Shown here piece after piece: positions 17,319-51,761 of a stretch of DNA of 64,000 nucleotides. The first letter of the stretch is position 1. Each line of letters starts with the position of its first letter. Made by a program: the position numbers and the translations under genes. Location: the NCBI GenBank assembly GCA_025999275.1, contig AP024680.1:419578-483577 (forward strand). Direction: 5' to 3'. Under the pieces are notes generated by a model. The model was not told the DNA's origin. It saw only the letters and a list, made by a program, of their open reading frames with translations, and made no database searches. Source of the stretch: Patescibacteria group bacterium. GTDB lineage: Bacteria > Patescibacteriota > Microgenomatia > UBA8517.

Positions 17319-17710
17319 TTTTTGTTTTTATGAATTACAGAAGCGCCAAAAGAGAGGTGAAGCTTACTTTTTCAGATGATGATTGGAGGAACTTTTGGAT
17401 ATTGCAAAAGTAAAGGATCTTAATAAAGAATCTGTAAGGAAGTTGTTTTGCTTAGCTTTTAAACTTTTTATCAGCGATTAATACTCCATTGACGATTTAT
17501 CAGCAATTTGTGACAGATTATTTTCAGTCTTGGTTAGGTCTGGCACCAAAAAGTATCCCGAGCTTCTTGATGGAGTGGAAGCAGGTTCTGAGATTTCTTT
17601 TTACATCAGAGACATTAATCTTCTTCCTATTTTTAATAGATTTTTAAAAGATATTTTTGACGTTTATTATCTTGTTTCTAAAAAAAATAGGGTATTTTCT
17701 TTTTTTATTA

Positions 17711-17722
17711 TTGTTGTATAAT
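17711..17722 (+). promoter_or_regulatory. putative -10 element (TGTATAAT) 6 nt upstream of gmd ATG; leaderless-type arrangement
   Basis: TTGTTGTATAAT at 17711-17722, ATG at 17729; same TGTATAAT-N6-7-ATG arrangement upstream of 22190. Confidence 0.3.
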
Positions 17723-17728
17723 CTTCTT

Positions 17729-18742
17729 ATGGCTAAGGCCAAAAAGAAAGCTTTAATTACAGGGATTACTGGACAGGATGGATCTTATTTGGCAGAGCTT
17801 CTTCTTAAAAAAGGCTACGAGGTTTCTGGTATAGTGAGAAAAACTAGTCATTTTTATTATGCCAACATTGCCCATATTCAGCATAATTTGAATCTGATTC
17901 AAGCTGATCTTTTAGACCCTGTATCTATTCGTGAAGCAATTCAAAAAGTTAAGCCTGATGAAATTTATAATTTAGCCTCCCAATCTCATCCTGCAGAATC
18001 TTTCAGGCAGCCAATTCATACAGCTGAAATTACTGGAATTGGTGCTCATCGTGTAATGGACGCTGCGCTTGATGTTGTTCCTAATGCTAAGTTTTATCAG
18101 GCATCTTCAAGTGAGATGTTTGGATGGGTAAAGGAAATTCCTCAAAACGAAAACACTTCTTTTAATCCTGCCAACCCTTATGCTGCAGCCAAACTTTATG
18201 CTCATAATATCGCAAGAATTTATAGAAAGAGTTATAAGATGTTTATTTCTTGCGGTATTCTTTTTAATCACGAATCTCCTCGTCGAGGTTTGGGCTTTGT
18301 TACTCAAAAAGTTACCTATGCTGCGGCTTGTGCTAAGCTTGGTATAAGAACTAGTCAGCATTTGAATGAAGAAGGGGAGCCAATTGTTAAAGATGGTAAG
18401 GTGGCGCTTGGAAATTTGGAAGCAAAAAGAGACTGGGGCTTTGCTGGAGACTATGTTGAAAGTATGTGGTTGATGCTTCAACAGAAAGAACCTGATGATT
18501 ATGTGATTGGAACAGGAGAAACTCACACAATAGCTGAGCTTTGTGAAGAAGCTTTTTCTTACCTTGGTCTTGATTGGAAAAAGTATGTTGTTGTAGATCA
18601 GCGTTTTATAAGGCCAACTGAAACAGGTCCATTGGTGGCTGATTATTCAAAAGCAAAGAAGGTCTTAGGGTGGAAGCCAAAAACTTCTTTTAAGGAGCTT
18701 GTTCGTATGTTGGTTGATGCTCACTTGGCTCGTCTGAGATAG
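17729..18742 (+). CDS. gmd: GDP-mannose 4,6-dehydratase
   Basis: 'KKALITGITGQDGSYLAELLLKKGYEVSGIVR' and 'NHESPRRGLGFVTQKV' are near-canonical GMD motifs; start taken at internal ATG 17729 of track ORF 17657. Confidence 0.9.
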   Translation: MAKAKKKALITGITGQDGSYLAELLLKKGYEVSGIVRKTSHFYYANIAHIQHNLNLIQADLLDPVSIREAIQKVKPDEIYNLASQSHPAESFRQPIHTAEITGIGAHRVMDAALDVVPNAKFYQASSSEMFGWVKEIPQNENTSFNPANPYAAAKLYAHNIARIYRKSYKMFISCGILFNHESPRRGLGFVTQKVTYAAACAKLGIRTSQHLNEEGEPIVKDGKVALGNLEAKRDWGFAGDYVESMWLMLQQKEPDDYVIGTGETHTIAELCEEAFSYLGLDWKKYVVVDQRFIRPTETGPLVADYSKAKKVLGWKPKTSFKELVRMLVDAHLARLR

Positions 18743-18747
18743 CCTTA

Positions 18748-19833
18748 ATGTTCAAAAAGGTAGACTTTTTTGTTTTATCTTTTCTTCTTTTTTCATTTTT
18801 TGTCATTCTCTTTTTTAGAAAACCTGATATCTTTCATTATCGTTTTAATGAGAGGTTAATCTCTGATTATTTGCGAAGCCAAGATATAGAGGATAAAGAA
18901 AGAAAAATAAAGGACAGAATATTTTTGTCAGATGCTGATATTTATCTTGCTTCTGGCGTTCTTTATGCCATGGGAGAGGATCCAACAAAATTTAATTTCC
19001 AACATCCTCCTTTGGTTAAATATCTTTTTGGTTTTTCTAATCTATATTTTGGCAATCCTTACTATGTGCAAGTATTTTTTTCATCCTTAATTATTATTTT
19101 GACTTATATCTTGGGTCTAAAAATTTTTAAAAGCAGAAAAGTTGCTTTTTTATCATCTTTAATGTTAACTTTTGATCCGATTTTACTTTCAACCACTTCA
19201 CAAACTCTTCTTGATAACACAAATACAGCTTTTTCTTTGTTATTTGTTTTATTGTTTCTTTTATTTCCTAACAACTTTATTCTTAACGGCATTGTCTTGG
19301 GTCTTCTTTTTGCCTCCAAGTTTTGGAGTACTAGTTTGATTTTGGTCATTTTTGTTTTTGCTTATCATTATTTTGTTTTAAAGAAGAAGATTAAACCAAG
19401 GTCTATTTTTTTAACTTTTTTGATTGCTGTTTTCGTTTTTTGTCTTTTTTATCTGAAGACTTTTGTCAATCATGGTGGAAAATTTAATATTTTATTTTTT
19501 GAAATTAAGAATTTAAAATTTATGCTTTCTCACAATAGCTCGCCTGTTCTTGGCAATTCCTTGATTCTTTTTTTGACTGGTCATTTTGTTGATTGGTGGG
19601 GAAGCGGGAAGTGGCTTTCTGCTGATGTTTGGAGTTTTCTTTGGCCAGTTTCTTTTTTGTTTGTTTTGCTGAATCTTAAAAAAGGTTTAAAGGAAAAAGA
19701 GAAGGGCTTGTTTTTTCTTTATCCCTTTGTCTTCTTTTTAACCAGTCTTTTTAACACCGCCTTTACCCGTTATTTTCTTCTAATTTTGCCTTTTTTCTAC
19801 CTCTCTTTTTCTTATTTATTAATAAAAAAATAA
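18748..19833 (+). CDS. GT-C fold membrane glycosyltransferase, PMT-like (short form)
   Basis: 'EDPTKFNFQHPPLVKYLFGFS' resembles the conserved HPPLgK loop of PMT/PMT_2 proteins; polytopic. Confidence 0.55.
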   Translation: MFKKVDFFVLSFLLFSFFVILFFRKPDIFHYRFNERLISDYLRSQDIEDKERKIKDRIFLSDADIYLASGVLYAMGEDPTKFNFQHPPLVKYLFGFSNLYFGNPYYVQVFFSSLIIILTYILGLKIFKSRKVAFLSSLMLTFDPILLSTTSQTLLDNTNTAFSLLFVLLFLLFPNNFILNGIVLGLLFASKFWSTSLILVIFVFAYHYFVLKKKIKPRSIFLTFLIAVFVFCLFYLKTFVNHGGKFNILFFEIKNLKFMLSHNSSPVLGNSLILFLTGHFVDWWGSGKWLSADVWSFLWPVSFLFVLLNLKKGLKEKEKGLFFLYPFVFFLTSLFNTAFTRYFLLILPFFYLSFSYLLIKK

Positions 19834-19852
19834 TGGTCAATGGTCAATGGTT
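19831..19852. repeat. heptamer tandem array TAATGGT-CAATGGT-CAATGGT
   Basis: same YAATGGT heptamer arrays recur at 44451-44486 (direct) and 44877-44910 (inverted). Confidence 0.7.
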
Positions 19853-19920
19853 GAGGGTTAATATTCGTCAGCTCCTTTTCCACTTCTATATTTTACTTGC
19901 TACTGTCTCTTGTCTCTGCT

Positions 19921-19998
19921 TTTCTACCCTCTTCTACCCTTCCACTCTTCTATTCTTCCGCTCTCTTCTACTCTTCCACTCTTCTACTCTTCCACTCT
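19921..19998. repeat. G-poor C/T-rich tandem repeat, about 4.5 copies of a 16-18 nt unit (CTCTTCTACTCTTCCACT)
   Basis: 19929-19946, 19947-19962, 19963-19980, 19981-19996 degenerate copies; top strand has a single G in about 90 nt. Confidence 0.75.
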
Positions 19999-20042
19999 TA
20001 TTTATCATTGACTGCTTTTGGCGGTTTTGTTTTAATTAGATT

Positions 20043-20366
20043 ATGCAGAAGGAAAATCATCAAGAATTTATAACTAAAGACTTTCTCCAAGAGTCTCTTC
20101 AAGATTTTGCTGATACAATTCTTGCGGGTATGTATGATATGTATAACAAGTTAGACAGAAGACTAATGAACGTCGAGGAAAGGTTAATGAATGTTGAAGG
20201 AAGATTAACAAACGTTGAGGAAAGGTTAACTTCGGTTGAGTGGCAGGTTGATTCTTTGAACAGAAAGTTTGAAGCCCAGCAAGTTAGGTTGGATAGGCAT
20301 GATAGTCGGATTTCCAAGCTTGAGAAAATTCACCCCAATGGCAAACATTCTTTGCCTGCCTATTAG
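20043..20366 (+). CDS. small coiled-coil protein with four in-frame 21-nt (heptad) tandem repeats
   Basis: 'RLMNVEE RLMNVEG RLTNVEE RLTSVEW' encoded by 20159-20242 (4 x 21 nt). Confidence 0.5.
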   Translation: MQKENHQEFITKDFLQESLQDFADTILAGMYDMYNKLDRRLMNVEERLMNVEGRLTNVEERLTSVEWQVDSLNRKFEAQQVRLDRHDSRISKLEKIHPNGKHSLPAY

Positions 20367-20469
20367 CATTTGTTTTAATTAAGGGTGGCTTTTATAGCGC
20401 CCTACTTTCTACCCATCTAGCCTCTTCTTTCTGACATGGTTATTATCTAGAATTTATTCTCTTACCCCT

Positions 20470-20510
20470 TACCCATACCCCATAATTCTTAAATCTTAAA
20501 TCCACAACCT
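20470..20510. repeat. direct repeat copy A (TACCCCATAATTCTTAAATCTTAAATC)
   Basis: shares 'CCCCATAATT...ATCTTAAATC' with copies at 21626-21668 and 22049-22102. Confidence 0.6.
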
Positions 20511-21531
20511 AAAATTTATTATCTACAGCATTTCTTTGGATTATTATTTCTTTAAATGCTTGGATAAATGATATTGCTGTTATGAAGAATCTTCCGTTTT
20601 CAAGCAAAATTGGCTTTAATGTTAGGTAGTAGTAATTTTCTTTCTGATATTTTTGCCCATAGAATTGGTTATGGAGATTCGCGTAAAGCTTGCTTGGTTT
20701 TTTGGCATTGTTTTTATAAATAAAATATTCAAATAATCCATTTACAATAAGATCTTTTGTTTTAAACCACAGATAAGCCCAGAATTCTTCTTCTGGTGCA
20801 ATTTTCCTTGCAAGCTCTAAAGCAAATCTGTGAGCGTATTTTTCTTTTTGATAGTTGGTTAGCAAGAGATGATTTTTGTTTTCTTTTATCATTTCCATTT
20901 CTTGTCGTGCATGTCCTAACTCGTGTATGAAAGTGAATATAGAGGGTATTGTTTTATATTTTAGACTGCATCTTATTTCAAATATTTTTTTGTTCTTGTT
21001 GTAAAGGCAGGAGGCTTCTTCATCTTTTATTATTTTTATTTTTTTGATTATTTCTTTTGCTAAAGGGTCTGATTCTTGCCAAATTTTATATACTTCTTCC
21101 AATTGGTATTCCTTTTGAGATTTGTGTTTAGGGAAAGTTAAGTAGTGTTCCGACCAGTATTCTTTTGGCAATCCCTTTTTGAATCTTACTTTTTGATTTA
21201 TGAATGATGTAATTTTTTGGGAGTCTTTGACCAAATTTTCAAGATTTTTCTGAGGGATTTTGTTGTTTTTTGCTAATTCATCGATGAAGTTTTTATATCC
21301 TTTATGTACTGAGGATTTTTTTAGGAAGTCTGTAAATTTACAGAAATATTTTTCTGCCTCTTTTAAGTCTTTTTTGTAAGCCTCAAACCTTTTTAATTTC
21401 TGTTTGTAGCTGATTTTTGCGACTAATATCTTTCTTATCTTATTTGCTTTTTCTTCTGGTATTAAGTTTCTTATTTTTTGAAGTTCAATTGCAGCATCAA
21501 AGAGAGCGGCTTTATAGTATATGTTTATCAT
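20509..21531 (-). CDS. hypothetical protein with HExxH zincin-type motif (putative metallopeptidase)
   Basis: 'FTFIHELGHARQEME'; Lys-rich N-terminal half; no other recognisable family. Confidence 0.4.
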   Translation of the reverse strand: MINIYYKAALFDAAIELQKIRNLIPEEKANKIRKILVAKISYKQKLKRFEAYKKDLKEAEKYFCKFTDFLKKSSVHKGYKNFIDELAKNNKIPQKNLENLVKDSQKITSFINQKVRFKKGLPKEYWSEHYLTFPKHKSQKEYQLEEVYKIWQESDPLAKEIIKKIKIIKDEEASCLYNKNKKIFEIRCSLKYKTIPSIFTFIHELGHARQEMEMIKENKNHLLLTNYQKEKYAHRFALELARKIAPEEEFWAYLWFKTKDLIVNGLFEYFIYKNNAKKPSKLYANLHNQFYGQKYQKENYYYLTLKPILLENGRFFITAISFIQAFKEIIIQRNAVDNKF

Positions 21532-23727: not shown

Positions 23728-25762
23728 CAAAAAAAATAATTTAAATTGGAAGAAGCCGATATTTGTTTTTTTTGTTTTTTTGGTGTTTTTACTTGTTATC
23801 TCAGAGGTTTTTATATATCCTGGCGTTGTTTTTAATAAATTGGGTATTAGAATTGAACTTTTTTTAGTTTTTTATTTTCTCCTGGTTGCTTTTTATAAAT
23901 TTAGTATTCCCAAGTCTTTTAATAAAATACTTTTATTTTCAACATGTTTAATTTTCTTGGGGTATTTATTCTTAGGTATCCAAGAAAAAATTAATTTTAA
24001 AAATTTTGTTTTTTCTAGATATCACATTTCTTTAACCCCATTGAGTTATTTGATTATGTTTCTTTCTTCATTTTTGTTTTTTGGTAATATTCAGAAAATA
24101 TCACCCAAAATCTTGGTTGATAGTTTTGAAAGATTTTTAGGTAAGTTTGAGGGATTTAGAAGATACTTTATTTTTTTGGGTAATATAGTCTCATTTTTGA
24201 ATTGGAAAAGAGTGTGGTTTTTGTTTATTTTTTCTTTCGTTTTTAGTTTTTTCATTTTTAGAGAGAATTTTGGATCAAGTTGGTCAATTATAGATGATCA
24301 TGAAATTGCTTATTTTTTAGGTAGTGATAAGAAAATTTTGGTTAATGAAATTCCAGGTTTAATCTTAAAAACTGAGGTTGGAAAATTTGGTGAAGCTTTG
24401 AGATTTAGGCCTTCTTATTATTTCTTAAGAATAGTTGAAAGTGCTTTGTGGAGGGACAATCCTTTACTTTGGTATGTCACTTTATTTTTAATACTTGTGA
24501 TTTTTGTATTTACCGTTTCTTATTTAATTTCTTCTTTTTTTGGATTCTTTGTAGGTATTGCTTTTACTATGTTTATTATGACAGATGTTTATTGGGCTGA
24601 TATTTTAGCTAGACTTGGGCCTGGGGAGATTTATGTTCTTCTTGGATTGTCTCTATATTCATTGGCGTTTTATAAAATATTTGTGCAAAAATCTGAAAAA
24701 TCTATCTACTGTCTGCTTTTTTTCTTGGGAGGCGTTATTGCTATAGGTTCTAAAGAGAATATGGTGATTTTGATGTTGCCTACTTTTTATCTAATCTTTA
24801 GTAGACTTAGATATCTTAAAAGTAGGCCATTTTTACTTTTAATGTGTGTATTACAGATTATTTTTTCCCTTTGGGTTTTTCTTGCTGTTTACCTTTCGAT
24901 TAGTAAATCTGGTCAAAATGTTTATGGGCAGAGTGTTGGTATTGGCAGTCTTTATCAAACCAGCATTTTGTCTTTTGAAAAGACGGTGAAGGAGTTAAAT
25001 CTTCCCTTTATTTTATTTGTTGTATTAATTATTTTTAGATTTTTGGGCATAAGCAAATCGATAAAACTTTTGATTAATAGCAATGGTGTTGTTTTCTTAT
25101 TTTTCTTCTTAATTTTTGGTTATATGTCTCAAATTGTTTTTTACTCTGGCGGTTTTCCGACCGGAATTAGGTATGATTTTCCTGGTGTTTTATTTAAGTA
25201 TCTTTTTTGGTTAACCAGTTTTTATATATTTATTTTGTCTTTTGAATCTTTTTTATACGAGTATAAATTTAGTTTTAAGAATTTTATTGTTCTTGTTTCA
25301 AGATTTTTGTTAGTAGTTATTCTTTTATATGAAGTAGCCACAAAAGGTTATTCAAACCTGATACTAGTGGAAAGAAAGGCTAGGGAAATTACTAATGCTT
25401 TTAACAATAAAGTAATTGATTTATCAAGTATTGCCAATAACAATCCCGATTATTTGATTATCTTTAGATCAGAAAACCCTTGGGATTATGAGCCTATTTT
25501 TTCTATGCAGAGATTTCTAGAATTTCAGGGTGTTAAGAATTTGATTGTTTTAAAATATACAGATAGTGATTTTGAGAACAGATCTGGTTTAACTAAGTTT
25601 CTTTCAGAAGAATTGTTTGAAGTTTCTAAAAATGGTGATAAAGAAAAAGGTTTTGCTGTTTTTAACCAACTTTATTTTGATAAATTTAGAAAAAGATGTA
25701 TATTGGTTTTATTTAGTAATGCTAAGGAGGATTTAAATTGTGAATACAAAATTTCTATTTAA
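23702..25762 (+). CDS. large polytopic membrane protein (686 aa), unknown function, possibly GT-C-like
   Basis: many TM helices; A8 run at 23735-23742 near 5' end. Confidence 0.45.
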   Translation: MILKMKSNNKKNNLNWKKPIFVFFVFLVFLLVISEVFIYPGVVFNKLGIRIELFLVFYFLLVAFYKFSIPKSFNKILLFSTCLIFLGYLFLGIQEKINFKNFVFSRYHISLTPLSYLIMFLSSFLFFGNIQKISPKILVDSFERFLGKFEGFRRYFIFLGNIVSFLNWKRVWFLFIFSFVFSFFIFRENFGSSWSIIDDHEIAYFLGSDKKILVNEIPGLILKTEVGKFGEALRFRPSYYFLRIVESALWRDNPLLWYVTLFLILVIFVFTVSYLISSFFGFFVGIAFTMFIMTDVYWADILARLGPGEIYVLLGLSLYSLAFYKIFVQKSEKSIYCLLFFLGGVIAIGSKENMVILMLPTFYLIFSRLRYLKSRPFLLLMCVLQIIFSLWVFLAVYLSISKSGQNVYGQSVGIGSLYQTSILSFEKTVKELNLPFILFVVLIIFRFLGISKSIKLLINSNGVVFLFFFLIFGYMSQIVFYSGGFPTGIRYDFPGVLFKYLFWLTSFYIFILSFESFLYEYKFSFKNFIVLVSRFLLVVILLYEVATKGYSNLILVERKAREITNAFNNKVIDLSSIANNNPDYLIIFRSENPWDYEPIFSMQRFLEFQGVKNLIVLKYTDSDFENRSGLTKFLSEELFEVSKNGDKEKGFAVFNQLYFDKFRKRCILVLFSNAKEDLNCEYKISI

Positions 25763-26738
25763 CAAAATAGTTATTTTTCTTGAAAAATATTTGAATATTT
25801 TTTTAAGTCGTCTTCTTGTTATTAACAAGATTCTGTTCCCGTATCTTATCAGTTTGACTTGTTTTTTCCTTTTTCTTGAATCTTATACCTATATTGGTTT
25901 TTTGAGGAAGTTTTTTCTTGTTGATTCGAGATTTTTCTTGATTTTGTCAATTTTTTCTGTTTCTCTTCTTTTTTATCTTAAACATGCACGAAAAGATTAC
26001 AAAGCTGATGCTCTTGAAAGTCTTGTCGTCAACTTAAACGCAGTCTTATTTTTACCCTTTGTTGTTTTATATTTTATTATGATTGCCACCAATGCTGCCA
26101 ATTACCCCAATTATGTCTTTGCAAATTATCACATCCAGCCTCAAAATTTTGTTAACTTGGTTTATTTATCATTTGTTATTTTTTTATTTAAAGTAGACCT
26201 ATTTTCCACAAAAGATGAGATAAATAAGTACCTAGCTTCTTTGAAGTTGTATTTAAAAAAATATTATTTATCTGTTGGAAACCTAAAAATCAACAGATCA
26301 AGATTCGCTTTTATTGAGATTGTTAAAAAGATGGGACTTAATGTAATTTTTTTATTTTTGATTCTTTTTTATTTTGTAAGTAACTTTTTAAATACTTTTG
26401 ATGACATAACTTCAGATTTAGTTTTTATTTTAACTCACAGAAACTATACCTATGAACAGAAAATGGAAAGGAGATGGGGCCTTTTGTATAAGTTTATTAG
26501 TTTGATAGAAAGGAATACTAGACCTGGTGATTCAATTTTACTTCCTGAAAACAAGCCTCCTCATAGTGTAGATGGTAGGATTGAGTACTATCGTTATTTT
26601 TTGGGTGGTAGAAAGTTAGTCAGCTATCATGACGATTTGAATTTAAAAGATTATGATTATATTGTAATTACAAAAGGATATCTGCATTCAATATATGATG
26701 GACCTCCAAAAAAAAGATTATATTTGGCCGGATTTTGA
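25740..26738 (+). CDS. membrane protein with C-terminal soluble domain, unknown function
   Basis: GTG start at 25740 preceded by AAGGAGG (25724-25730) at 9-nt spacing. Confidence 0.5.
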   Translation: MNTKFLFNKIVIFLEKYLNIFLSRLLVINKILFPYLISLTCFFLFLESYTYIGFLRKFFLVDSRFFLILSIFSVSLLFYLKHARKDYKADALESLVVNLNAVLFLPFVVLYFIMIATNAANYPNYVFANYHIQPQNFVNLVYLSFVIFLFKVDLFSTKDEINKYLASLKLYLKKYYLSVGNLKINRSRFAFIEIVKKMGLNVIFLFLILFYFVSNFLNTFDDITSDLVFILTHRNYTYEQKMERRWGLLYKFISLIERNTRPGDSILLPENKPPHSVDGRIEYYRYFLGGRKLVSYHDDLNLKDYDYIVITKGYLHSIYDGPPKKRLYLAGF

Positions 26739-26870
26739 TGTTGATTCTGATAAGATAGTTTACCTATTTAGGCGAGAGGATGGAAATTATATAGAGAGGA
26801 TCTCAGATTTATCTTATAAACCCGATGACTATAGGTATGATGATGTTTGGGGCTTAATTAGAATCAAAAA

Positions 26871-28268
26871 ATGATATACCACATCTTAATGCAATTATTC
26901 TTTTTATTGATGATCTTGTTTCTTGGAATTAATGTAATAAGGCTTTTCCGTTTAAGAATGGGTTTGGCTGAAAACATTTCTTCTGGATTTATGCTTGGCG
27001 TCGGTCTGACGACTTTTGGGCTTTTTTTATTGGGTTTTGTTGGCTACAGATTTAATTTTGTTGGTATTTTTTTATTCTTGCTTTTTGGGAATCTAATATT
27101 TGTATTGATAAATTTGTCTTTGAGGAATAAATATTCTTTAGATCTCCATTTGGGTTTCCTAAAGAATCTTGATAAATTGGATAAGTTCTTTTTTGGGGGA
27201 ATTACATTTCTGTTTTTAACTTTGCTTATCAGGGATTTGTATTGGCCAATCTGGATGTGGGACTCAATCCAAATGTATGATTACAGAGCAAAACTTATTG
27301 TTCAAAGCCAGAGTATTTTTTTCTCAGCGCAATCTTTTTATGATGCTTTCTATCCTCTTTTAACTTCTCTCGTTCACTCAATTTTGTATGTAGCGGGAAG
27401 TAATAATCCACAGTATGTTTATTCGTTCTTTTTTCTAGCATTGGTCTTGGGTGTTTACTCTTATATTAGTAGATTAACTAGTAGAAAAGCAGCGTTGTTA
27501 ATATCATTTATAATATCTTTTCTGCCTATTTTTTATCGTAAATTCTTAAATCCAGAAACTTCTACCGTTTTTTCTATTTTTATTTTGTTTGGCACATTTT
27601 ACTTGATAAGGTGGATGCATAAAAACGATATTTCTTATTTGATTTTGGGGTCTGTCTTTTTTGCCTTTTCCAGATTTACCAGGAATGAACCACTGTGGCT
27701 GCCCATATCTTTATTGCTATTTGTTGTCGTATTAATAGGCAAACACAAATCTAATATCATCAATTTGGGAAAGTTTAGGCAAATATTATATATTTTAATT
27801 TTCTTTTTGATACCCAATTATTTAGTGGGGGTAATTTTTAAAAAGTACTTGTCGATTTACAATTTTCCGGAATCTTTGCGTTTTGACTCTCAATTTTCTT
27901 TTATAGGTTTGTTTTTGCAGTATATTTATGGTTTCAAGCTTAAATTTGTCTTAGATTCATTCTGCTTAGTTTTTAAATATACGATCTTTGATATAGTTTT
28001 ACCGATGATTGTGATTTTTTTCCTTGGTTTCAGAAAACATTTGGTTGGAGAAACTTATTATCTGTTTCTTGTTGTGTTTTTTTATCTTCTTACGCTTTTT
28101 GTTGGGACATTTTTTTATAGAATTATTTATTTCTACTCTGATTCTAATTTCTGGGCATTAGGAACTTCTCTTGCTAGGTTTGGTATGTTCTGGCAAGTGT
28201 TGGTTTTTGTTCTTGGGGGTTTGGTGTTAGGTGAGTGTTTCAGCCGTATTAATAAAGAAATCCGTTGA
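26871..28268 (+). CDS. polytopic membrane protein, unknown function
   Basis: 465 aa, about 12 hydrophobic helices. Confidence 0.45.
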   Translation: MIYHILMQLFFLLMILFLGINVIRLFRLRMGLAENISSGFMLGVGLTTFGLFLLGFVGYRFNFVGIFLFLLFGNLIFVLINLSLRNKYSLDLHLGFLKNLDKLDKFFFGGITFLFLTLLIRDLYWPIWMWDSIQMYDYRAKLIVQSQSIFFSAQSFYDAFYPLLTSLVHSILYVAGSNNPQYVYSFFFLALVLGVYSYISRLTSRKAALLISFIISFLPIFYRKFLNPETSTVFSIFILFGTFYLIRWMHKNDISYLILGSVFFAFSRFTRNEPLWLPISLLLFVVVLIGKHKSNIINLGKFRQILYILIFFLIPNYLVGVIFKKYLSIYNFPESLRFDSQFSFIGLFLQYIYGFKLKFVLDSFCLVFKYTIFDIVLPMIVIFFLGFRKHLVGETYYLFLVVFFYLLTLFVGTFFYRIIYFYSDSNFWALGTSLARFGMFWQVLVFVLGGLVLGECFSRINKEIR

Positions 28269-30063: not shown

Positions 30064-31038
30064 ATGAAGAATAATAATCTGGTTTATTGTACTTATTTTG
30101 ATAAAGGCTTTCTGATTAAAGGATTAGCTCTTCACGCCTCGTTAATTAAAAACAATCCTAAAGCTAAGCTTTGGATTTTGGCCTTTGATAGCTATACGAA
30201 GGATATATTAAACAAAATGAAATTAAAAGGAGTTACGGTAGTATCTCTTTCTAGTTTTGAAGATAAGGAGCTATTATCAATTAAGAACACTAGACAAACT
30301 GTTGAGTATTATTGGACTTGCACTCCAAGTTGGATACTTTATGTATTGGAAAAAACTAAGGCTGATTATGTGATTTATTTAGATGCTGATTTGTATTTTT
30401 TCTCTAATCCTGACCCTGCTGTCTTGGAGATTGGGAATAAATCTTTATTAGTTGTTGAGCATAGATTTCCATCAGGACGTAAGGGAATGGAAATAAAGGC
30501 TGGTAGATTTAATGTTGCTTTTAATGTTTTTAAGAATGATAGGATTGGTAAGAAATGTCTTGAGAGATGGAGAAAGCAATGTATCGATTGGTGTTACTGG
30601 AAACCTGAGGGTAATAAGTTGGGGGATCAGAAATATTTAGATGAATGGCCAATGTTGTATGAAGATAAACTTGTAATTTCTGAAAACTTGGGTGTAGATG
30701 CCGCACCCTGGAACATATCGCAATATAGAATTTCAAGTAAAGATGGAGACATTTATATTAATGACGACAAACTTGTTTGTTATCACTTTCATCAACTTCG
30801 TATATTAGGTCCAAATCATTATAGCCGTGTTTTAGGTTATACTTTGCCAAAGGCTGTTGTTGATTTAATATACATTCCTTATGAGAAAGAGTTGGATAAA
30901 CAATACTCAAGAATTAAAAGTTATGATTCAGAGTTTGAATTGGTAGCGACAAAACAAAGTGCCAGTATGTTATTATGGCATAAACTTGCTAGGTATCTTG
31001 GCCCTATTTATTGGAAACTTAAGAGTATTTCTAGATGA
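30064..31038 (+). CDS. GT-A fold DXD glycosyltransferase (family uncertain; GT8/GT32-like)
   Basis: 'YVIYLDADLYFFSNPDP' DXD motif in nucleotide-diphospho-sugar transferase-like context. Confidence 0.45.
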   Translation: MKNNNLVYCTYFDKGFLIKGLALHASLIKNNPKAKLWILAFDSYTKDILNKMKLKGVTVVSLSSFEDKELLSIKNTRQTVEYYWTCTPSWILYVLEKTKADYVIYLDADLYFFSNPDPAVLEIGNKSLLVVEHRFPSGRKGMEIKAGRFNVAFNVFKNDRIGKKCLERWRKQCIDWCYWKPEGNKLGDQKYLDEWPMLYEDKLVISENLGVDAAPWNISQYRISSKDGDIYINDDKLVCYHFHQLRILGPNHYSRVLGYTLPKAVVDLIYIPYEKELDKQYSRIKSYDSEFELVATKQSASMLLWHKLARYLGPIYWKLKSISR

Positions 31039-31439
31039 AAAGAAAGTTAATAAAGATTATAAAAGCCCCTTCATTTATTACAGATGGGATGCTCACCCAA
31101 CTTCAGTATCCCGACGTTCCTTTTGAAATAAAGAGGGTATATTTTATACAGGGAGTTTCGGAAGGTGCCGTGAGGGGAGCGCATGCCCATGTGGAGACTA
31201 TTCAGGCTTTATTTTGTATCCAAGGATCAATAAAAATGGTCTTTGATGATGGTAAAGTTAGGGAAGAGATAATTTTAGATAAGCCTAATGTGGGGGTTTT
31301 ACTTGAACCTGGTGTTTGGCATGAGATGCAGGATTTTAAGAAGGATACTATAATTTTAGTGTTGGCGTCCAAAGAGTATGAACCTAAGGATTATATCAGG
31401 AGTTATGAAGATTTCTTAAACTTTTATGCAGGTAACTAG
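31035..31439 (+). CDS. sugar 3,4-ketoisomerase, FdtA/QdtA-like cupin (WxcM C-terminal domain family)
   Basis: 'FEIKRVYFIQGVSEGAVRGAHAH...LVLASKEYEPKDYIRSYEDF' matches FdtA family conserved blocks. Confidence 0.75.
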   Translation: MKRKLIKIIKAPSFITDGMLTQLQYPDVPFEIKRVYFIQGVSEGAVRGAHAHVETIQALFCIQGSIKMVFDDGKVREEIILDKPNVGVLLEPGVWHEMQDFKKDTIILVLASKEYEPKDYIRSYEDFLNFYAGN

Positions 31440-32535
31440 AAGTATTAAATATTTGGATTTTCAGAAAGAGGCGGCTCTCCGTGGCAAGAAATATCTTGCT
31501 GCTATGAGAAGGGTCCTTAATTCAGGGGTTTATATCTTATCTGATGAAGTCAAGAGATTTGAGCAGGAATTTGCTGATTATTGTGATATTAAGTATTGTG
31601 TTGGAGTTGGTAATGGACTTGAGGCAATTCAGATATCGTTGATGGCTTTAGGAATTGGCAAGGGCGATGAAGTAATAACCACGCCCCTTTCAGCAGTAGC
31701 TACAACACTAGCAATTTTAGCGGTTGGGGCAGAGCCTGTTTTTGTGGATATAAAGGAAAATGGACAAATAAACGAAGATCTTATTGAAAAAGCAATAACA
31801 AAAAGAACTAAAGCCGTTCTACCTGTTCATCTTTATGGACAGCCAGCAAATGTAAAGAAGATTAGTGATATTTGTAAAAAGCACGATTTGTTTTTGGTTG
31901 AGGATTGTGCCCAAGCTCATGGAACTACTTTAGATGGTAGGAAAGTTGGGACTTTTGGTGATATAGCATGTTGGAGTTTTTATCCCACCAAGAATTTGGG
32001 TGCTATAGGAGATGGTGGGGCTATCACTACCAATAGTCCAGAATTAGCTAAGATTTGTTCGGAGATACGCGATTATGGCCAAGAAAGTAAATATGTTCAT
32101 GTAAGGTTTGGCCTAAATAGTCGTTTGGACGAACTTCAGGCTGCAATACTTAGAGAAAAGTTGAAATTTTTGGATAGGGATAACCTTAAAAGAAGGAAAA
32201 TTGCAAAATTTTATGTGGATAAATTAAAAAATGTTAAAGGTATTGAAGTTGTTTTGCCTGAGAGATTTGAGGATTCGGTTTTTCATCTTTTTGTTATCAA
32301 AACGGACAAGAGAGATGAACTTAAGAAATATTTAGCCAATAATGGTATTCCTACTTTGATCCATTATCCAATTGTTATTCCAGACCAGCCTATGTTTGGG
32401 GAGAGGTTTAAAAAACTGGATATTCCAGTTTCGAAGCGGTTTGTAATCGAGACATTGTCTTTGCCCATGTATCCATTTACTAAGAATATAGAAGCTAATT
32501 ATGTAGTATCTAAATTGTCGGATTTTTTTTGTTAA
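31426..32535 (+). CDS. DegT/DnrJ/EryC1/StrS-family PLP-dependent sugar aminotransferase
   Basis: 'CVGVGNGLEAIQISLMALGIGKGDEVITTPLSAVATTLAIL' and 'NSRLDELQAAILREKLKFLD'. Confidence 0.85.
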   Translation: MQVTRSIKYLDFQKEAALRGKKYLAAMRRVLNSGVYILSDEVKRFEQEFADYCDIKYCVGVGNGLEAIQISLMALGIGKGDEVITTPLSAVATTLAILAVGAEPVFVDIKENGQINEDLIEKAITKRTKAVLPVHLYGQPANVKKISDICKKHDLFLVEDCAQAHGTTLDGRKVGTFGDIACWSFYPTKNLGAIGDGGAITTNSPELAKICSEIRDYGQESKYVHVRFGLNSRLDELQAAILREKLKFLDRDNLKRRKIAKFYVDKLKNVKGIEVVLPERFEDSVFHLFVIKTDKRDELKKYLANNGIPTLIHYPIVIPDQPMFGERFKKLDIPVSKRFVIETLSLPMYPFTKNIEANYVVSKLSDFFC

Positions 32536-33524
32536 ATAATTTTGTTTACATGAAATGTGTAAATTTTTTTAATTTTATTAATTTTGGATCTAAGAAAGCT
32601 CTAGAGGATTTAATGGATAAAGTTGAAGTCAGATTTAGGAAGCCATTAACCAAACTACAAAAGATTTCTTATTTTAATAATAAACTTTATTTTAAGTTAG
32701 AAAACGAAAATTCAACTGGTTCTTTTAAGGATAGAGTTGCTGGTTTAATTTTATTGAAAATGAATAAATTGGGTTATAAAAAATTTTTTGTTAATACTAG
32801 TGGAAATATGGGCTTGGCTTTAACTGCTCTTTCTAATAAAAAAAAAGTTTTTTCGTATGTTCTTTTGGATGATCCTTACTATTCAAATATAGGTTTGTTA
32901 AGCAATAAGTCTTCTTTTTTGGAGATTAGGCCAAATAGAATTTCTTTTATTAGCCGTATTTTAAGTTTTTTTTGTGCTGAAATTGGCGTTTGGGATTTTT
33001 GGTGGTTTATTTATAAGAAAAGATTTTTCCAATCTTTCAATGATCGAGGTTTCTTTATTGCTCAGCCGAGTATATATATAAATCCAGATTGCATTTTGGG
33101 ATACGCGGATATATCTTTTGAGATTTTTAAACAATTGGGCGATATGGTTCCTGATTATTTAATTACACCTGTTATAAATAGCGATAATGCTATAGGTCAG
33201 TGGTTGGGTTATTATGCTCTTTTTAAGTATAAATTTGTAAATAAGATTCCACATTTTATTTTGGTTGAAAGGGAGAAAGTATATAGGCATTTCAATTACC
33301 CGGATGCTTGGCAAAAAATTAAAAGATTTTCAAAGATATCTTTGATTGGAGTTAGAGAAGATGAAGAATTTTGTGCTAGAAAGTATGTTTCTGATAATTT
33401 TGGTAAAAATATTAATGGAGTGTCGGCAGGTTGTTGGGCCGCTTATAGTAAATTATGTGATAGAGGTTTTTTTAGAACAGACGATGTTGTAGTATTAGTT
33501 TTATCTGGTTCTGATAAATTATGA
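32529..33524 (+). CDS. divergent fold-type-II PLP enzyme-like protein (Trp-synthase-beta/Thr-synthase superfamily), possibly degenerate
   Basis: 'NSTGSFKDRVAGLIL' PLP-lysine motif and 'VNTSGNMGLALTAL'; no clear Gly-rich phosphate loop downstream; A9 run at 32840-32848. Confidence 0.45.
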   Translation: MLNNFVYMKCVNFFNFINFGSKKALEDLMDKVEVRFRKPLTKLQKISYFNNKLYFKLENENSTGSFKDRVAGLILLKMNKLGYKKFFVNTSGNMGLALTALSNKKKVFSYVLLDDPYYSNIGLLSNKSSFLEIRPNRISFISRILSFFCAEIGVWDFWWFIYKKRFFQSFNDRGFFIAQPSIYINPDCILGYADISFEIFKQLGDMVPDYLITPVINSDNAIGQWLGYYALFKYKFVNKIPHFILVEREKVYRHFNYPDAWQKIKRFSKISLIGVREDEEFCARKYVSDNFGKNINGVSAGCWAAYSKLCDRGFFRTDDVVVLVLSGSDKL

Positions 33525-33784
33525 TTTCCAGGTTCTTGCTGTTTTTTTTATCTGGTAAAAGAAAGGATATGCCAATAGACGAAATTGCACATATATTGGC
33601 AGTTAAAAAACTTAAAAAGATATCGAGGTTATATAGAATTAATCAGAATTTTTTTCAGATTTCTGATCTGGGTTACTTTTTACCAGAATTTAATTCATAT
33701 AATCTTTTAAGTCTAAGCGATCTTGATAAAAAGAGATTTGCTTTTAAAAATAATTATGTTTTTTATTCACTCACCGTCGAATAA
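33521..33784 (+). CDS. small hypothetical protein (could be spurious or part of next gene's 5' region)
   Basis: ORF only; overlaps track start of next ORF. Confidence 0.2.
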   Translation: MISRFLLFFLSGKRKDMPIDEIAHILAVKKLKKISRLYRINQNFFQISDLGYFLPEFNSYNLLSLSDLDKKRFAFKNNYVFYSLTVE

Positions 33785-34898
33785 TTTTTTGAGAGATCTA
33801 TATTATGTTAAAAACAAACCAAGGATAATTATTTTGTTGGCACATAACTACTTCTCTTTAGATAACTTAATAACACGAATTGGCTTACGTCTCGGTTTAT
33901 CAGAATCTGACCCTAATAGATTTGTTTCTAAAAAGGATATTACAAATATCTTAAAAGATTGTGGTTACGAACTTGTTTTTGACGAGGGTTCTTTTTATTT
34001 TTCTAAGCTATTTTTAGTTCTTTTCCCTAACATATTCCAGAAGATTTTGGGTAAATTTATATGGAAATTTGAAGGTTCTGATAAATTAAGATTTTTAAGA
34101 TTAGTCTTTAAGCCTTTTTCTAGAAACAGATTTATGGTTTTTAGGATAAACAATTACTTTATTCTTGGTAAAAAACACCTTGGTCTAGACTATTTATTAG
34201 GTACTGTTAATTTTGACAAGCTCTACAATAAATCTACTTCTCAAGGCAAATTTTATTTCGCTAATGTTAAGAGACTTATGTTTGTTTCTAAACCTGGTTT
34301 GGGAGATTGTGTGTTGGACGTTGGTACTGGTACTGGAAGTTTTGCAATAGAAGCTGCAAAACTTGGAGCTAGGGTTTTTGCCATAGATATATTACCCCAG
34401 ATGCTTTTGAAGGCAAAGAGAAAAGCGGCTAGAGTTGGTCTAGAAAAGAGAATTAAATTTGTAGAAGCTGATGCAGAGAAAATTCCTTTTCCTGACAATA
34501 AATTTGATATTGTTTATTCTGCAAGTGTTCCTCACGATGTTCCTGATTTTAGCAATTTTATGAAGGAATTGTCGAGGGTGACAAAAAAAGGAGGTCATAT
34601 TTATTTGAATATTTTTAATTTTTATAGTTTAGCTGGTTTGTATCATTTATTTAGAATGTTTATATTAAAGTCAACTAAATTAAATTTGATTACAAGAAAA
34701 AGATTGTTATATGAAGCAGAAAAAAATAATTTGTATTTAGTAGGCAGATTTGGTATAGAGCTTTTTCAAGGTTGGCCAATTCCTTGGAAGTTACGCTGGT
34801 TTTTGTTCAAGAAGTTTTGTAATTTTGAAAAAAGGCTTTCTTTTTCTAATTTTAACTTCTTGTATTCTCAATTTTTTTACCGTCTAGTTAAACTTTAA
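33723..34898 (+). CDS. two-domain protein with class I SAM-dependent methyltransferase domain
   Basis: 'VLDVGTGTGSFAIEAAKLGARVFAIDILPQML' motif I / post-I; true start may be an internal ATG (e.g. 33756). Confidence 0.65.
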   Translation: MIKRDLLLKIIMFFIHSPSNNFLRDLYYVKNKPRIIILLAHNYFSLDNLITRIGLRLGLSESDPNRFVSKKDITNILKDCGYELVFDEGSFYFSKLFLVLFPNIFQKILGKFIWKFEGSDKLRFLRLVFKPFSRNRFMVFRINNYFILGKKHLGLDYLLGTVNFDKLYNKSTSQGKFYFANVKRLMFVSKPGLGDCVLDVGTGTGSFAIEAAKLGARVFAIDILPQMLLKAKRKAARVGLEKRIKFVEADAEKIPFPDNKFDIVYSASVPHDVPDFSNFMKELSRVTKKGGHIYLNIFNFYSLAGLYHLFRMFILKSTKLNLITRKRLLYEAEKNNLYLVGRFGIELFQGWPIPWKLRWFLFKKFCNFEKRLSFSNFNFLYSQFFYRLVKL

Positions 34899-34905: not shown

Positions 34906-35757
34906 ATGGTGAAAATTTTAATAGATATTTTAAGTTTGACAAGATCATCTTTTAAATCTTTTGGGATTTTATTTGTTTTTAGAGTTATTTTTTGGAAAAT
35001 TAACAAAATACTTATTAAATTACCAATGATCATGGCTTTAACAGAGGATATAAAATGTATTTGTTACCCTTCTAGTTCTTTTGGTAGTTTGGTTGTTTAT
35101 ACAAGGTTGCCGGAGTATTGGGAGATGAATTTCTTGTTAGATAATCTTAATGAATTATCTACTTTTATTGATGTGGGGGCGAATATTGGAGTTTATACTC
35201 TTCTTGCCGCATCAAAAATTAAAAAGGGTAAAATATTTTCTTTTGAAATAGACCCTAGGGCCTTGAAAAATCTTTACGAGAATATCAGGTTAAATGATTT
35301 GGGAAACAGAGTAGAGGTTATAGAAAAAGTTGTTTCTGATAAAAATGGCTATGAAAGTTTTGTTTTTTCTAAAGAATCAGAAGTAAGTCACATTCTAACG
35401 GATGAGAAGGAAAACAAAAATATTAGTAAGATTGCGTCTATTAAACTAGATGATTTTATAGATAGTAGAAAAATTAGGTTTGTAGATTTTTTGAAGATAG
35501 ATGTAGAAGGTGCGGAATATAAAGTATTGAAGGGTTTAAGCAAAACATTGAAGGGAAAAAGGGTTGGTATGATTTTGTTTGAGCTGAATAGTAATTTAAC
35601 TAGATATGGTGCTGGAAGCAATGATGTTTTTAATTTATTATCAGGTTTTGGTTATAAAGTTTACTCCTTTTTAAATAATGGCAAAATAAGGAGAATTAAA
35701 AATGTGGAAGATTTTCCTTCAAATAAAACACAAAATTTTTTGGCAAAAGTCAGTTAA
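34906..35757 (+). CDS. FkbM-family methyltransferase
   Basis: 'IDVGANIGVYTLLAA...FSFEIDPRALKNLYENIRLN'. Confidence 0.75.
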   Translation: MVKILIDILSLTRSSFKSFGILFVFRVIFWKINKILIKLPMIMALTEDIKCICYPSSSFGSLVVYTRLPEYWEMNFLLDNLNELSTFIDVGANIGVYTLLAASKIKKGKIFSFEIDPRALKNLYENIRLNDLGNRVEVIEKVVSDKNGYESFVFSKESEVSHILTDEKENKNISKIASIKLDDFIDSRKIRFVDFLKIDVEGAEYKVLKGLSKTLKGKRVGMILFELNSNLTRYGAGSNDVFNLLSGFGYKVYSFLNNGKIRRIKNVEDFPSNKTQNFLAKVS

Positions 35758-42526: not shown

Positions 42527-43120
42527 GTGAAAAGATTTCTTTTTGTTGATGGAACCAATCTTTACGCGGGGCAGTTTTCCCTATTTGGCCCAGATAAGTA
42601 TCTTGTATTTTCTGATTTTTTAAGATTTATCGAGGATGCTATAGGTAAAAAATTTGATAAGATATTTTTTTATGCTTCTTATTCTCCTAGAAGTAAAAAG
42701 CTTACCGAGAAAGAAAAGATTTATCTTAAAAATGAATACTTTTTTTATAAAAGTGCCAAATTAACCCCAAAATTATCTTTTTTCCGTGGATATCGTTCTA
42801 GAAAAAGTGGAAAAGAAAAAGGGGTTGATGTTAAACTTGCGTGTGATTTAGTCTCTTTATCTATTACTGGAAAGTATCAAGAAGGTTTTATTTTAAGCGG
42901 AGATGCTGATTTTTTGGAGGCTCTCTTTATATCAAAGAAGTATTCTAAAGGAATTAGGCAAAATATAATTTGCTTGGAAAATAAAATAATGTATCGAGGT
43001 TCTTATTTTTTTCCAACTTATGTAATCAGATTTACCGGAAAGAATTTAAAAATTAAAGAGAAGTATTACAAATTTATTTATTTGGATCAGAAATTTTTGG
43101 TTAGGGATCTTAATAATTAG
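42527..43120 (+). CDS. NYN-domain (LabA-like) protein
   Basis: GTG start; 'KRFLFVDGTNLYAGQF...' matches N-terminus of NYN/LabA domain proteins. Confidence 0.55.
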   Translation: MKRFLFVDGTNLYAGQFSLFGPDKYLVFSDFLRFIEDAIGKKFDKIFFYASYSPRSKKLTEKEKIYLKNEYFFYKSAKLTPKLSFFRGYRSRKSGKEKGVDVKLACDLVSLSITGKYQEGFILSGDADFLEALFISKKYSKGIRQNIICLENKIMYRGSYFFPTYVIRFTGKNLKIKEKYYKFIYLDQKFLVRDLNN

Positions 43121-44450: not shown

Positions 44451-44486
44451 TAATGGTTAATGATTGATGACTAATGGTTAATGATT
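44451..44486. repeat. heptamer array: two direct copies of TAATGGTTAATGAT; second copy contains the start codon of the 4HB gene
   Basis: perfectly complementary to 44877-44890. Confidence 0.75.
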
Positions 44487-44870
44487 AAGAAAAAGAATAA
44501 TCTTTATAGGACTGTTGAAGACGTGCCTGTGTGGCAATTGTCGCATCAGCTAACTCTTAGAGTTTATAAATTAACAGAGGCCTTTCCTAGGGCTGAGGTA
44601 TATGGTCTAACCTCTCAGATTAGGAGGTCTGCCAGTTCTGTGTCAGCGAATATATCTGAGGGTTTCTATAGGAATAGCACAAAAGAGTTGATAAATTTTC
44701 TATATAACGCGAGAGGGTCGTTGGGAGAAACGCTTTATCACATAAGGCTTGCAAGAGATTTGGGTTTATTAAATTCTTCTGATTTTGAAAGTCTTAAAAA
44801 TGGCTATAATTTACTTGGTAGACAATTGAATGGATGGATTAGGAGTCTTAAATTGAAAATTAATGGTTGA
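44481..44870 (+). CDS. four helix bundle protein (TIGR02436 / 23S rRNA intervening-sequence protein family)
   Basis: 'VYKLTEAFPRAEVYGLTSQIRRSASSVSANISEG'. Confidence 0.85.
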   Translation: MIKKKNNLYRTVEDVPVWQLSHQLTLRVYKLTEAFPRAEVYGLTSQIRRSASSVSANISEGFYRNSTKELINFLYNARGSLGETLYHIRLARDLGLLNSSDFESLKNGYNLLGRQLNGWIRSLKLKING

Positions 44871-51467: not shown

Positions 51468-51761
51468 ATGGATAATTTTTCAGCCTCTTTTAAGAAACTT
51501 TTTTGGGATGTTGATTTATCATCTCTCGATGAAAACAAAAACAAGGATTTTATTATAGAAAGGGTGCTTGAGTTTGGAAACTTGGAGGATTTTGCTGAGC
51601 TTAAGAAGCATTATGCTCTTGAGGATATAGTTTCGGTTTTGAAGAATTCTTCTAATTTGTCTTACAAAACTGGCAATTTTTATGCTTTAATTTTAGGTGT
51701 GCCAAGAAAGGAGGTTCTATGTTTGAGGAAGCCATTGACACAAAGACAAGACAGGTTTTAG
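51468..51761 (+). CDS. small hypothetical protein, putative partner of downstream AbiEii-like nucleotidyltransferase
   Basis: 97 aa; overlaps downstream gene by 43 nt in a different frame; TGGTATAAT box at 51449-51457. Confidence 0.4.
   Translation: MDNFSASFKKLFWDVDLSSLDENKNKDFIIERVLEFGNLEDFAELKKHYALEDIVSVLKNSSNLSYKTGNFYALILGVPRKEVLCLRKPLTQRQDRF

Follow-up and report, generated by a model that had tools for sequence, protein, structure and literature searches.

What is a pyridoxal 5'-phosphate (PLP) protein of fold type II doing beside genes for an amino sugar? The question is raised by a stretch of 64,000 nucleotides of contig AP024680.1 from a Patescibacteria group bacterium (hereafter the window), in which a ketoisomerase gene of the FdtA type and a DegT-family aminotransferase gene are followed, at position 32529, by an open reading frame (ORF) that a first-pass annotation took for a fold-type-II PLP protein put to a new use in a setting unusual for that fold, possibly degenerate or inactive. 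The best explanation of positions 30064-34898 is a conserved glycan-tailoring cassette of a Woesebacteria-like bacterium of the candidate phyla radiation (CPR). Its FdtA/DegT pathway is known; new here is a rare, conserved pair of a PLP-fold protein and an S-adenosylmethionine (SAM)-dependent methyltransferase without a described counterpart, not a decaying enzyme. The genes are:

30064-31038, plus strand: GT8-like glycosyltransferase, 324 amino acids (weak PF01501 match, 22.2 bits, E = 1.2e-4)
31035-31439, plus strand: FdtA/QdtA-type nucleoside diphosphate (NDP)-4-keto-6-deoxyhexose 3,4-ketoisomerase, a cupin of 134 amino acids (PF05523)
31426-32535, plus strand: DegT-family C3-aminotransferase of the QdtB/FdtB type, 369 amino acids (PF01041, 375 bits)
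32529-33524, plus strand: threonine-synthase-derived fold-type-II PLP protein, 331 amino acids from a TTG start (PF00291)
33521-34898, plus strand: long two-domain SAM methyltransferase, about 458 amino acids once repaired, split into ORFs 33521-33784 and 33723-34898

The repurposing and the unusual context were borne out: the product of the ORF at 32529 matched the PALP family (PF00291) at 89.8 bits (cut-off 35), only in pieces, and its gene lies in a glycan cluster. The lysine motif that had been noticed is also present, as GSFKDR, and is of the threonine-synthase type of fold-type-II enzymes, not of the tryptophan-synthase-beta type to which it had been assigned. Threonine-synthase models scored well below their cut-offs (PRK08329, 67 bits against 358; PRK06381, 65 against 266; TIGR00260, 44 against 167), as they did for the relatives P0008-P0010, and models of SbnA and CysK gave 27-29 bits. 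The nearest proteins by profile were the threonine synthases 2ZSJ and 1UIM (48 bits). An AlphaFold2 model of the protein (predicted local distance difference test (pLDDT) 81.8, predicted template modelling (pTM) score 0.84) had short threonine synthases as its nearest folds in Foldseek (TM-score 0.64-0.71, 17-21% identity) and 500 PDB matches at E ≤0.001, of which all 50 listed were fold-type-II enzymes. The NCBI record KatS3mg088_464, 100% identical, begins at ATG 32550 and has 324 amino acids; this start is more likely than the TTG at 32529.

Relatives are few. A word-based search of 5.8 billion proteins returned six, and an exhaustive profile search of 1.84 billion representative proteins returned four clusters below 1e-30, after which scores fell from 149 to 85 bits. 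No GTDB species representative carries the protein, and it was found on only three JGI metagenome contigs. Sequence comparison thus assigns it to a tiny, very rare clade derived from threonine synthase. Its presumed cofactor-binding elements are encoded at the following positions:

32727-32729, plus strand: codon for Lys67, the presumed PLP Schiff-base lysine in GSFKDR, by alignment to 1UIM and 2ZSJ
33174-33188, plus strand: codons for I216-N217-S218-D219-N220, the remodelled, glycine-free cofactor-phosphate loop PVINSDNAIGQW, by alignment to G-N-A-G-N

Nine sequences, the relatives being 29-48% identical to the window protein, share 43 invariant columns, among them S65-F66-K67-x-R69, S91-G92-N93, N217-S218-D219-N220-A221, G223-Q224-W225 and S299. 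K67 aligns with the lysine in GSFKDRG of the threonine synthases 1UIM and 2ZSJ, and N93 with the asparagine directed to the cofactor O3'. C-terminal Ser326, the ring-nitrogen serine, aligns with their (T/S)G motif and is kept in all members except P0005. What the clade has rebuilt is the phosphate loop, PVGNAGNITAxW in threonine synthases and PVINSDNAIGQW here: GNAGN has become INSDN, with both asparagines kept and both glycines replaced. The first-pass annotation was therefore right that no Gly-rich phosphate loop is to be seen; among the PLP-binding residues, the lysine, SGN and ring-nitrogen serine are kept and the loop glycines are lost. The new loop, INSDNA(I/L)GQW, is itself invariant in the clade, and its NSDNA core is identical in nine of nine family members.

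A series of loops leads from the threonine-synthase form (GNAGN) through GGGDN in P0012, ASGDN in P0013 and ITGDL in P0010 to INSDN. Because the neighbouring threonine-synthase-like groups (GGGDN, ASGDN) have the aspartate, it is not a sign of decay, and we rejected it as a clade-specific inactivating change; specific to the clade is the loss of every glycine. P0012, the nearest threonine-synthase-like protein outside the clade (locus L014, 77-2295), has a Cys-rich N-terminal region, and downstream of its gene lie an ornithine-cyclodeaminase/mu-crystallin-family gene and a ferredoxin gene, an arrangement that recalls SbnA/SbnB.

Of 46 columns without variation in the eight relatives, the window copy matches 43. 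It differs by I270V and at two positions in the C-terminal tail, and its deviation at invariant columns is no greater than that of most other members. Because the cofactor-site columns are invariant and the window copy deviates no more than others, the label 'degenerate' is not supported; with the odd loop conserved among relatives, we rejected the reading of a decaying pseudogene.

The substrate site has changed more thoroughly. Positions aligned to T88 and R160 of threonine synthase are L/M94 and C/S188, those aligned to N154/S155 are P180/S181, and EGQKT has become LxGYS; we take these residues (Thermus thermophilus numbering) to hold the phosphate of the substrate, O-phosphohomoserine, in threonine synthase. 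After strand 242-248 the protein lacks 18-26 residues of threonine synthases, and it has a new Trp-rich helix, WDxxW (155-159), in which model confidence is the lowest within the fold (block mean pLDDT 59-66). Compared with threonine synthase, the pocket is more hydrophobic and Trp-rich. In view of these changes the protein is not a threonine synthase, and a phospho-amino acid is an unlikely substrate.

The long methyltransferase gene overlaps the PLP gene stop by 4 nt in the window and lies directly 3' of it in all seven lineages with context (379-456 amino acids). The overlap is 8 nt in loci L001, L002, L007, L010 and L012; in L005 the two genes are 79 nt apart. The word-based search, run with the methyltransferase against the 5.8 billion proteins, found six relatives, five of them on contigs that also carry a relative of the PLP protein, and the PLP-protein relatives without a methyltransferase on the same contig are those on short contigs. 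The pairing extends to the intermediate P0010 (ITGD loop, 178 bits on a threonine-synthase model) and is absent at P0012. These observations indicate that the PLP protein and the long methyltransferase are an obligate, usually translationally coupled pair.

The C-terminal half of the methyltransferase is an intact class-I SAM methyltransferase with motif I and a Methyltransf_11 domain, resembling small-molecule methyltransferases. The N-terminal half is degenerate and methyltransferase-like, with a weak link to the C-terminal domain (hhalign E = 0.055) and no PDB sequence match. Among the best 60 PDB profile matches we recognised neither TylM1 nor DesVI. In the window its reading frame is interrupted:

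33759-33764, plus strand: T6 run at the frame break; removal of one T gives ...NNYVFIHSPSNNF..., as in orthologues

A tblastn search with P0158, an intact methyltransferase from contig Ga0315298_1006814, aligned in two pieces in different frames (33530-33730 and 33762-34895), and NCBI annotates two proteins, KatS3mg088_465 and _466, where orthologues have a single ORF; both halves keep the conserved residues of the family. Two other window genes are broken in the same way. A GT-C/PMT glycosyltransferase gene at 9514-11158 is split into ORFs of 162 and 402 amino acids, and its orthologue in the related genome CP058602.1, intact at 545 residues, aligns with it in two frames, which meet at a T8 run (9957-9964). 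At 25740-26871, the alignment of the CP058602.1 orthologue (330 amino acids, function not known) changes frame at an A8 run (26708-26715). This third homopolymer frame break suggests systematic indel errors in the assembly. Because two other genes are broken likewise relative to intact orthologues, the break in the methyltransferase is most likely a homopolymer assembly error.

The first two enzymes of the cassette were confirmed where the first-pass annotation had put them, as a real 3-amino-3,6-dideoxyhexose gene pair. FdtA matched PF05523 at 135.5 bits (E = 1.3e-39, cut-off 23; profile positions 14-129 of 131). Its best solved match was FdtA 2PA7 (108 bits), then QdtA (90 bits), scores that do not discriminate between a galacto (FdtA) and a gluco (QdtA) product; all of its solved matches are deoxythymidine diphosphate (dTDP) sugar enzymes. 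The catalytic His-x-His is kept, RGAHAHVE aligning with RGFHAHKK of 2PA7, and deposited H-to-N mutant chains mark the same two positions (His49 and His51 of FdtA). The window FdtA is 74-77% identical to its close relatives and 44-50% to distant ones.

The DegT ORF overlaps that of FdtA by 14 nt. Its product has an intact PLP-lysine motif (SFYPTKNLG, aligned with SFYPAKNLG of QdtB), and its solved matches were QdtB 3FRK (341 bits), 7B0D (328), 7N63 (327), DesV (303), 5U1Z (302) and WbpE (271). C4 enzymes scored lower: perosamine synthase 159 bits (ranking about 20th), ArnB 148 and WecE-type enzymes 125. Placed by match scores to solved proteins between the perosamine-synthase and FdtB/QdtB groups, the protein falls in the C3 (QdtB/FdtB/DesV) clade, and we rejected the suggestion that it might be perosamine-synthase-like (159 against 341 bits for QdtB). 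Taken alone, FdtA and DegT are ordinary, routine members of the known 3-amino-3,6-dideoxy-sugar pathway.

Does the pair belong with these two enzymes? Related loci were arranged as follows, PALP denoting the PLP-protein gene and LbH a left-handed beta-helix acyltransferase gene:

Window and L012, GC about 30%: FdtA-DegT-PALP-methyltransferase, adjacent
L005/L006, GC 44%: FdtA-DegT-LbH-PALP-methyltransferase-Wzx
L007-L009, GC 34-37% (L007, 37%): FdtA-DegT-LbH-PALP-methyltransferase-Wzx
L001 and L002, GC about 31%: pair and FdtA/DegT in one cluster, 3.5-7 kb apart

FdtA and DegT were present in every related locus whose upstream context exceeds about 5 kb, and in four of six lineages, spanning 30-44% GC, the pair was adjacent to them or separated only by the LbH gene. 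This conserved linkage shows that the pair belongs with the amino-sugar genes. Identity in close relatives was 68-77% for FdtA/DegT and 47-56% for the pair (PLP protein 47-49%, methyltransferase 50-56%). The LbH proteins linked to the module in relatives are of the WbbJ/WcaF/maltose-O-acetyltransferase type; they scored 36-58 bits on serine acetyltransferase models, no better than on models of sugar O-acetyltransferases. In L001, a minus-strand gene at 19020-20873 that has no counterpart in the window adjoins the flippase gene and encodes a 617-residue asparagine-synthase-like amidotransferase (GATase_7 and Asn_synthase domains), which could be an alternative amide-forming tailoring enzyme.

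At the 5' end, the GT8-like gene overlaps the FdtA start by 4 nt. Its orthologues, 61-74% identical, also lie upstream of FdtA, adjacent in L001 and L012 and with one 200-amino-acid gene between in L002. It is thus the conserved upstream neighbour of FdtA in close relatives, and its product is probably the transferase for the amino sugar. The gene at the 3' end is more loosely linked to the module, following the long methyltransferase gene in the window and L012 only (L012 orthologue 53% identical):

34906-35757, plus strand: FkbM-family methyltransferase, 283 amino acids (PF05050, 84.5 bits)

From which nucleotide sugar would the pathway start? Pfam and/or NCBIfam scans covered window ORFs of at least 120 amino acids, leaving out a 139-amino-acid ORF at 18107-18526 (antisense, nested in gmd). 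Among the scanned ORFs we found no RmlA or RmlB, nor any nucleotidyltransferase, and a sole 4,6-dehydratase, so that the first-pass annotation was right on both counts. That gene, and the LbH gene which the same annotation had joined with FdtA and DegT in a classic trio, are:

17657-18742, plus strand: guanosine diphosphate (GDP)-mannose 4,6-dehydratase (gmd; TIGR01472), judged to lie outside the module
56343-56948, plus strand: LbH acyltransferase of the WcaF/maltose-O-acetyltransferase type (WcaF family, 99.5 bits), not demonstrated to be part of the module

The dehydratase is a true Gmd: it scored 367.9 bits on TIGR01472, not quite reaching the cut-off of 415, against 87 bits on the RmlB model TIGR01181, and we rejected a mis-called RmlB, which the Pfam family GDP_Man_Dehyd would also match. 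Its true start is probably near 17732. It is 93% identical to Gmd of the Woesebacteria genome CP058602.1, with conserved gene order around it, and 80-94% identical to Woesebacteria/Microgenomates proteins that several sources name Gmd; such is its conservation that 90% clusters merge genomes. It lies 13 kb upstream of the module, in a block (PMT, short-chain dehydrogenase/reductase (SDR), GT4, mannosyltransferase, Gmd, unknown, GT2) that is gene-for-gene syntenic with the complete genome CP058602.1. No protein of the PALP family and no long methyltransferase that could be ascribed to that genome came out of the protein searches, whose only NCBI-sourced match was the window's own. In the related module loci there is no 4,6-dehydratase within 10 kb. 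In the window we recognised no enzyme of the Fcl, Rmd, Per or ColD type that would consume the Gmd product.

The gene after gmd (18748-19833) has no Pfam, NCBIfam or PDB match. The two recur together in four loci (L015-L018) with a gap of 6-10 nt, the downstream protein having 337-399 amino acids, being 59% identical between the window and CP058602.1 and having no Fcl or Rmd nearby; it is perhaps an enzyme or transferase, as yet unrecognised, with GDP-4-keto-6-deoxymannose as substrate.

The classic trio did not hold. The LbH protein at 56343, 23 kb away, scored 99.5 bits on the WcaF family and 65 on maltose O-acetyltransferase against 37 for QdtC and 35 for FdtD; it looks like an O-acetyltransferase, and we rejected it as an FdtC or QdtC. 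It is also the best window match (30-37% identity) to the LbH protein encoded between DegT and the PLP gene in distant relatives.

By homology, FdtA converts an NDP-4-keto-6-deoxyhexose into its 3-keto isomer, and the DegT protein, of the QdtB/FdtB type, aminates C3 to give an NDP-3-amino-3,6-dideoxyhexose. The PLP protein is presumably catalytically active, because its cofactor-contacting residues are conserved. With the phosphate site dismantled and the pocket more hydrophobic, its substrate would be an amino acid that carries no phosphate, and its reaction may be a beta- or gamma-elimination or replacement, as in its ancestors. Because the two genes are translationally coupled, we infer that the protein works with the methyltransferase, probably in complex with it. 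Between them, the two proteins would furnish the 3-amino sugar, or the glycan that contains it, with a methylated group derived from an amino acid, either by building that group or by attaching it. We give an even chance to this general model of an active PLP/SAM tailoring unit for the amino sugar, drawn as it is from conservation and gene order; any specific chemistry is improbable. One version, itself rather unlikely, is a two-component PLP/SAM enzyme in which gamma-elimination on SAM or on an O-acyl amino acid yields a fragment that is joined to the 3-amino group and N-methylated by the partner.

Several points count against an active tailoring pair. Literature searches in O-antigen, FdtA, polysaccharide and nucleotide-sugar contexts gave no precedent for a fold-type-II PLP enzyme or a threonine-synthase-like gene, and the substrate and reaction of the PLP protein are guesses. 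The methyltransferase ORF is broken in the window genome. In L001 and L002 other genes part the pair from FdtA/DegT, the link being to the cluster and not strictly to the two enzymes; rmlA and rmlB were seen neither in the window nor in any related locus, and dTDP is assumed. In the AlphaFold2 model the helix after the phosphate loop starts at residue 219; a glycine-free loop with Ser-Asp at the helix N-terminus might in principle act as a helix cap and keep a phosphate out, and an aspartate stands at this position in no solved relative. Such a loop, together with the dismantled threonine-synthase substrate site and the 18-26 deleted residues, would suit a pseudoenzyme, a PLP-fold protein without PLP that serves as a structural or regulatory subunit and leaves modification of the sugar to the methyltransferase alone; like TylM1 in the mycaminose pathway, that enzyme might for instance N-methylate the amine at C3. 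Ketoisomerase, aminotransferase and SAM methyltransferase would then make a complete pathway of the mycaminose or ravidosamine kind, and the PLP protein evolves faster than FdtA/DegT (47-49% against 68-77% identity in the same genome pairs). However, the methyltransferase evolves about as fast (50-56%), and at 29-48% identity the lysine, SGN loop, S299 and phosphate loop are invariant, with Ser326 kept except in P0005, a pattern of constraint on the cofactor site. P0010, already paired with a methyltransferase, has the more ordinary ITGD loop and reaches 178 bits on a threonine-synthase model. We consider a pseudoenzyme unlikely. Decay in the window genome, with a real frameshift, a methyltransferase pseudogene and a leftover PLP protein, would explain the interruption at the T6 run and the two separate NCBI proteins; it is very unlikely given two further genes whose frames break at T8 and A8 runs (a usual mark of indel errors at homopolymers in an assembly), the conserved residues in both methyltransferase halves and a PLP gene without excess substitutions at invariant sites.

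The remaining alternatives concern what the pair and the FdtA/DegT enzymes act upon. Some 3.5-7 kb separate the pair from FdtA/DegT in L001 and L002, where it is flanked by GT-C and GT2 genes and adjoins the flippase gene, and the islands hold many other methyltransferases and transferases, so that the pair might serve some other component (a separate glycan substituent or a metabolite) and merely share the island. The presence of FdtA and DegT in every locus with sufficient upstream context, and their adjacency to the pair, or separation by LbH alone, in four of six lineages of 30-44% GC, make this quite unlikely. As to the nucleotide, a GDP route would have Gmd supply GDP-4-keto-6-deoxymannose, which FdtA and then DegT would convert to a mycosamine-type GDP-3-amino-3,6-dideoxyhexose. 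Gmd is indeed the only 4,6-dehydratase found in 64 kb, no consumer of its product was recognised, and rmlA/rmlB are in neither the window nor any related locus. Against this, the top aminotransferase matches are led by dTDP-sugar enzymes (QdtB and DesV, 303-341 bits, against 159 for Per), as are those of FdtA throughout. Gmd sits 13 kb upstream in the CP058602.1-syntenic block, there always followed by its own conserved unknown gene, no PALP or long-methyltransferase protein was recovered from CP058602.1, and no gmd lies within 10 kb of any related module locus. Moreover, the known 3,4-ketoisomerases are all dTDP-specific, and none has been found for GDP-4-keto-6-deoxymannose (PMC8944477). We hold the GDP route to be highly improbable; were it nevertheless correct, a prospect just as remote, the window FdtA would be the long-missing 3,4-ketoisomerase for that sugar. 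The nucleotide is most likely dTDP, with the precursor coming from RmlA/RmlB encoded elsewhere in the genome.

The cassette and its proteins have partial likenesses among known systems. The cassette resembles the dTDP pathways to 3-acetamido-3,6-dideoxyglucose (Qui3NAc; QdtA-QdtB-QdtC of Thermoanaerobacterium) and 3-acetamido-3,6-dideoxygalactose (Fuc3NAc; FdtA-FdtB-FdtC of Aneurinibacillus) in its cupin ketoisomerase with His-x-His followed by a DegT C3-aminotransferase and, in distant relatives of the module, in the LbH acyltransferase right after the aminotransferase. Unlike those pathways, it has no QdtC/FdtC-type N-acetyltransferase and no linked rmlA/rmlB, and its PLP-fold protein and long methyltransferase have no counterpart there. 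In the dTDP-mycaminose and dTDP-ravidosamine pathways (Tyl1a-TylB-TylM1), a ketoisomerase, a C3-aminotransferase and a SAM-dependent methyltransferase act on one sugar. TylM1 and DesVI are single-domain proteins of about 250 amino acids that need no PLP partner, whereas the methyltransferase here has about 450 amino acids, a degenerate extra domain and generic class-I similarity only. In having two class-I methyltransferase-like domains per chain it resembles the tandem-domain phosphoethanolamine N-methyltransferases (Haemonchus PMT-2 4KRH; plant PMTs 5WP5), which are among its PDB matches and of which the nematode enzymes have one vestigial domain; the likeness is confined to the generic SAM-binding domain (59-66 bits), and the N-terminal domain matches nothing by sequence.

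The PLP protein shares with short (class I) threonine synthases (T. thermophilus 1UIM/1V7C, Aquifex aeolicus 2ZSJ, Bacillus subtilis 6CGQ) the GSFKDR motif, SGN loop, NP motif, xWxGY after the phosphate loop and C-terminal (T/S)G motif. It differs from them in its 17-21% identity, the change of GNAGN to INSDN, the new WDxxW helix and its location in a glycan cluster, not a threonine operon. Fold-type-II beta-replacement enzymes such as SbnA and CysK, which replace a side-chain leaving group with a nucleophile (SbnA forming a C-N bond), offer a resemblance of chemistry, not of membership at 27-29 bits; the LbH acetyltransferase beside the PALP enzyme in L005-L007 echoes the CysE-CysK pair. To our knowledge, every PLP enzyme characterised in nucleotide-sugar pathways (aminotransferases and the ColD/E1 dehydrases) is of fold type I, as are all solved DegT-family matches listed for the window DegT.

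The surroundings of the cassette are those of one very large surface-glycan island, which fills the window: GC is about 30%, coding is almost all on the plus strand, and the contents include many GT2 and GT4 genes, a Wzx flippase (43170) and a Wzy_C protein (58332). Membrane glycosyltransferase paralogues of the GT-C (PMT_2/PMT-like) group are unusually dense, with at least 12 in 64 kb (for example at 2650, 5846, 8327, 9514, 16032, 26871, 35829, 37401, 40915, 45739, 48137 and 59821), beside which there are YfhO and DUF6056 proteins. A minus-strand transposase gene of the IS200-type Y1 group (11189-11881) and a minus-strand YfhO-family membrane protein gene (12686-14974) break up the PMT-SDR-GT4 block that is contiguous in CP058602.1. 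Three non-glycan genes lie inside the island, encoding an NYN-domain protein (42527-43120), a '23S rRNA intervening sequence protein'/bAvd-like four-helix protein (44481-44870, 126 bits) and an AbiEii-type nucleotidyltransferase toxin (51719-52339).

Together, the results indicate that a conserved fold-type-II protein is locked to a methyltransferase in 3-amino-sugar cassettes, which points to an undescribed tailoring reaction in uncultivated CPR bacteria. The PLP clade is a natural experiment on whether a glycine-free phosphate loop can still hold the cofactor. If the two-component PLP/SAM chemistry were true, nucleotide-sugar or glycan tailoring would have its first PLP enzyme of fold type II, and the CPR cell-surface glycan would carry an undescribed betaine-like or N-methyl-amino-acid decoration. 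The four-gene unit is concrete and clonable, and offers a way to identify the decorations on surface glycans in CPR bacteria, about whose cell envelopes next to nothing is known.

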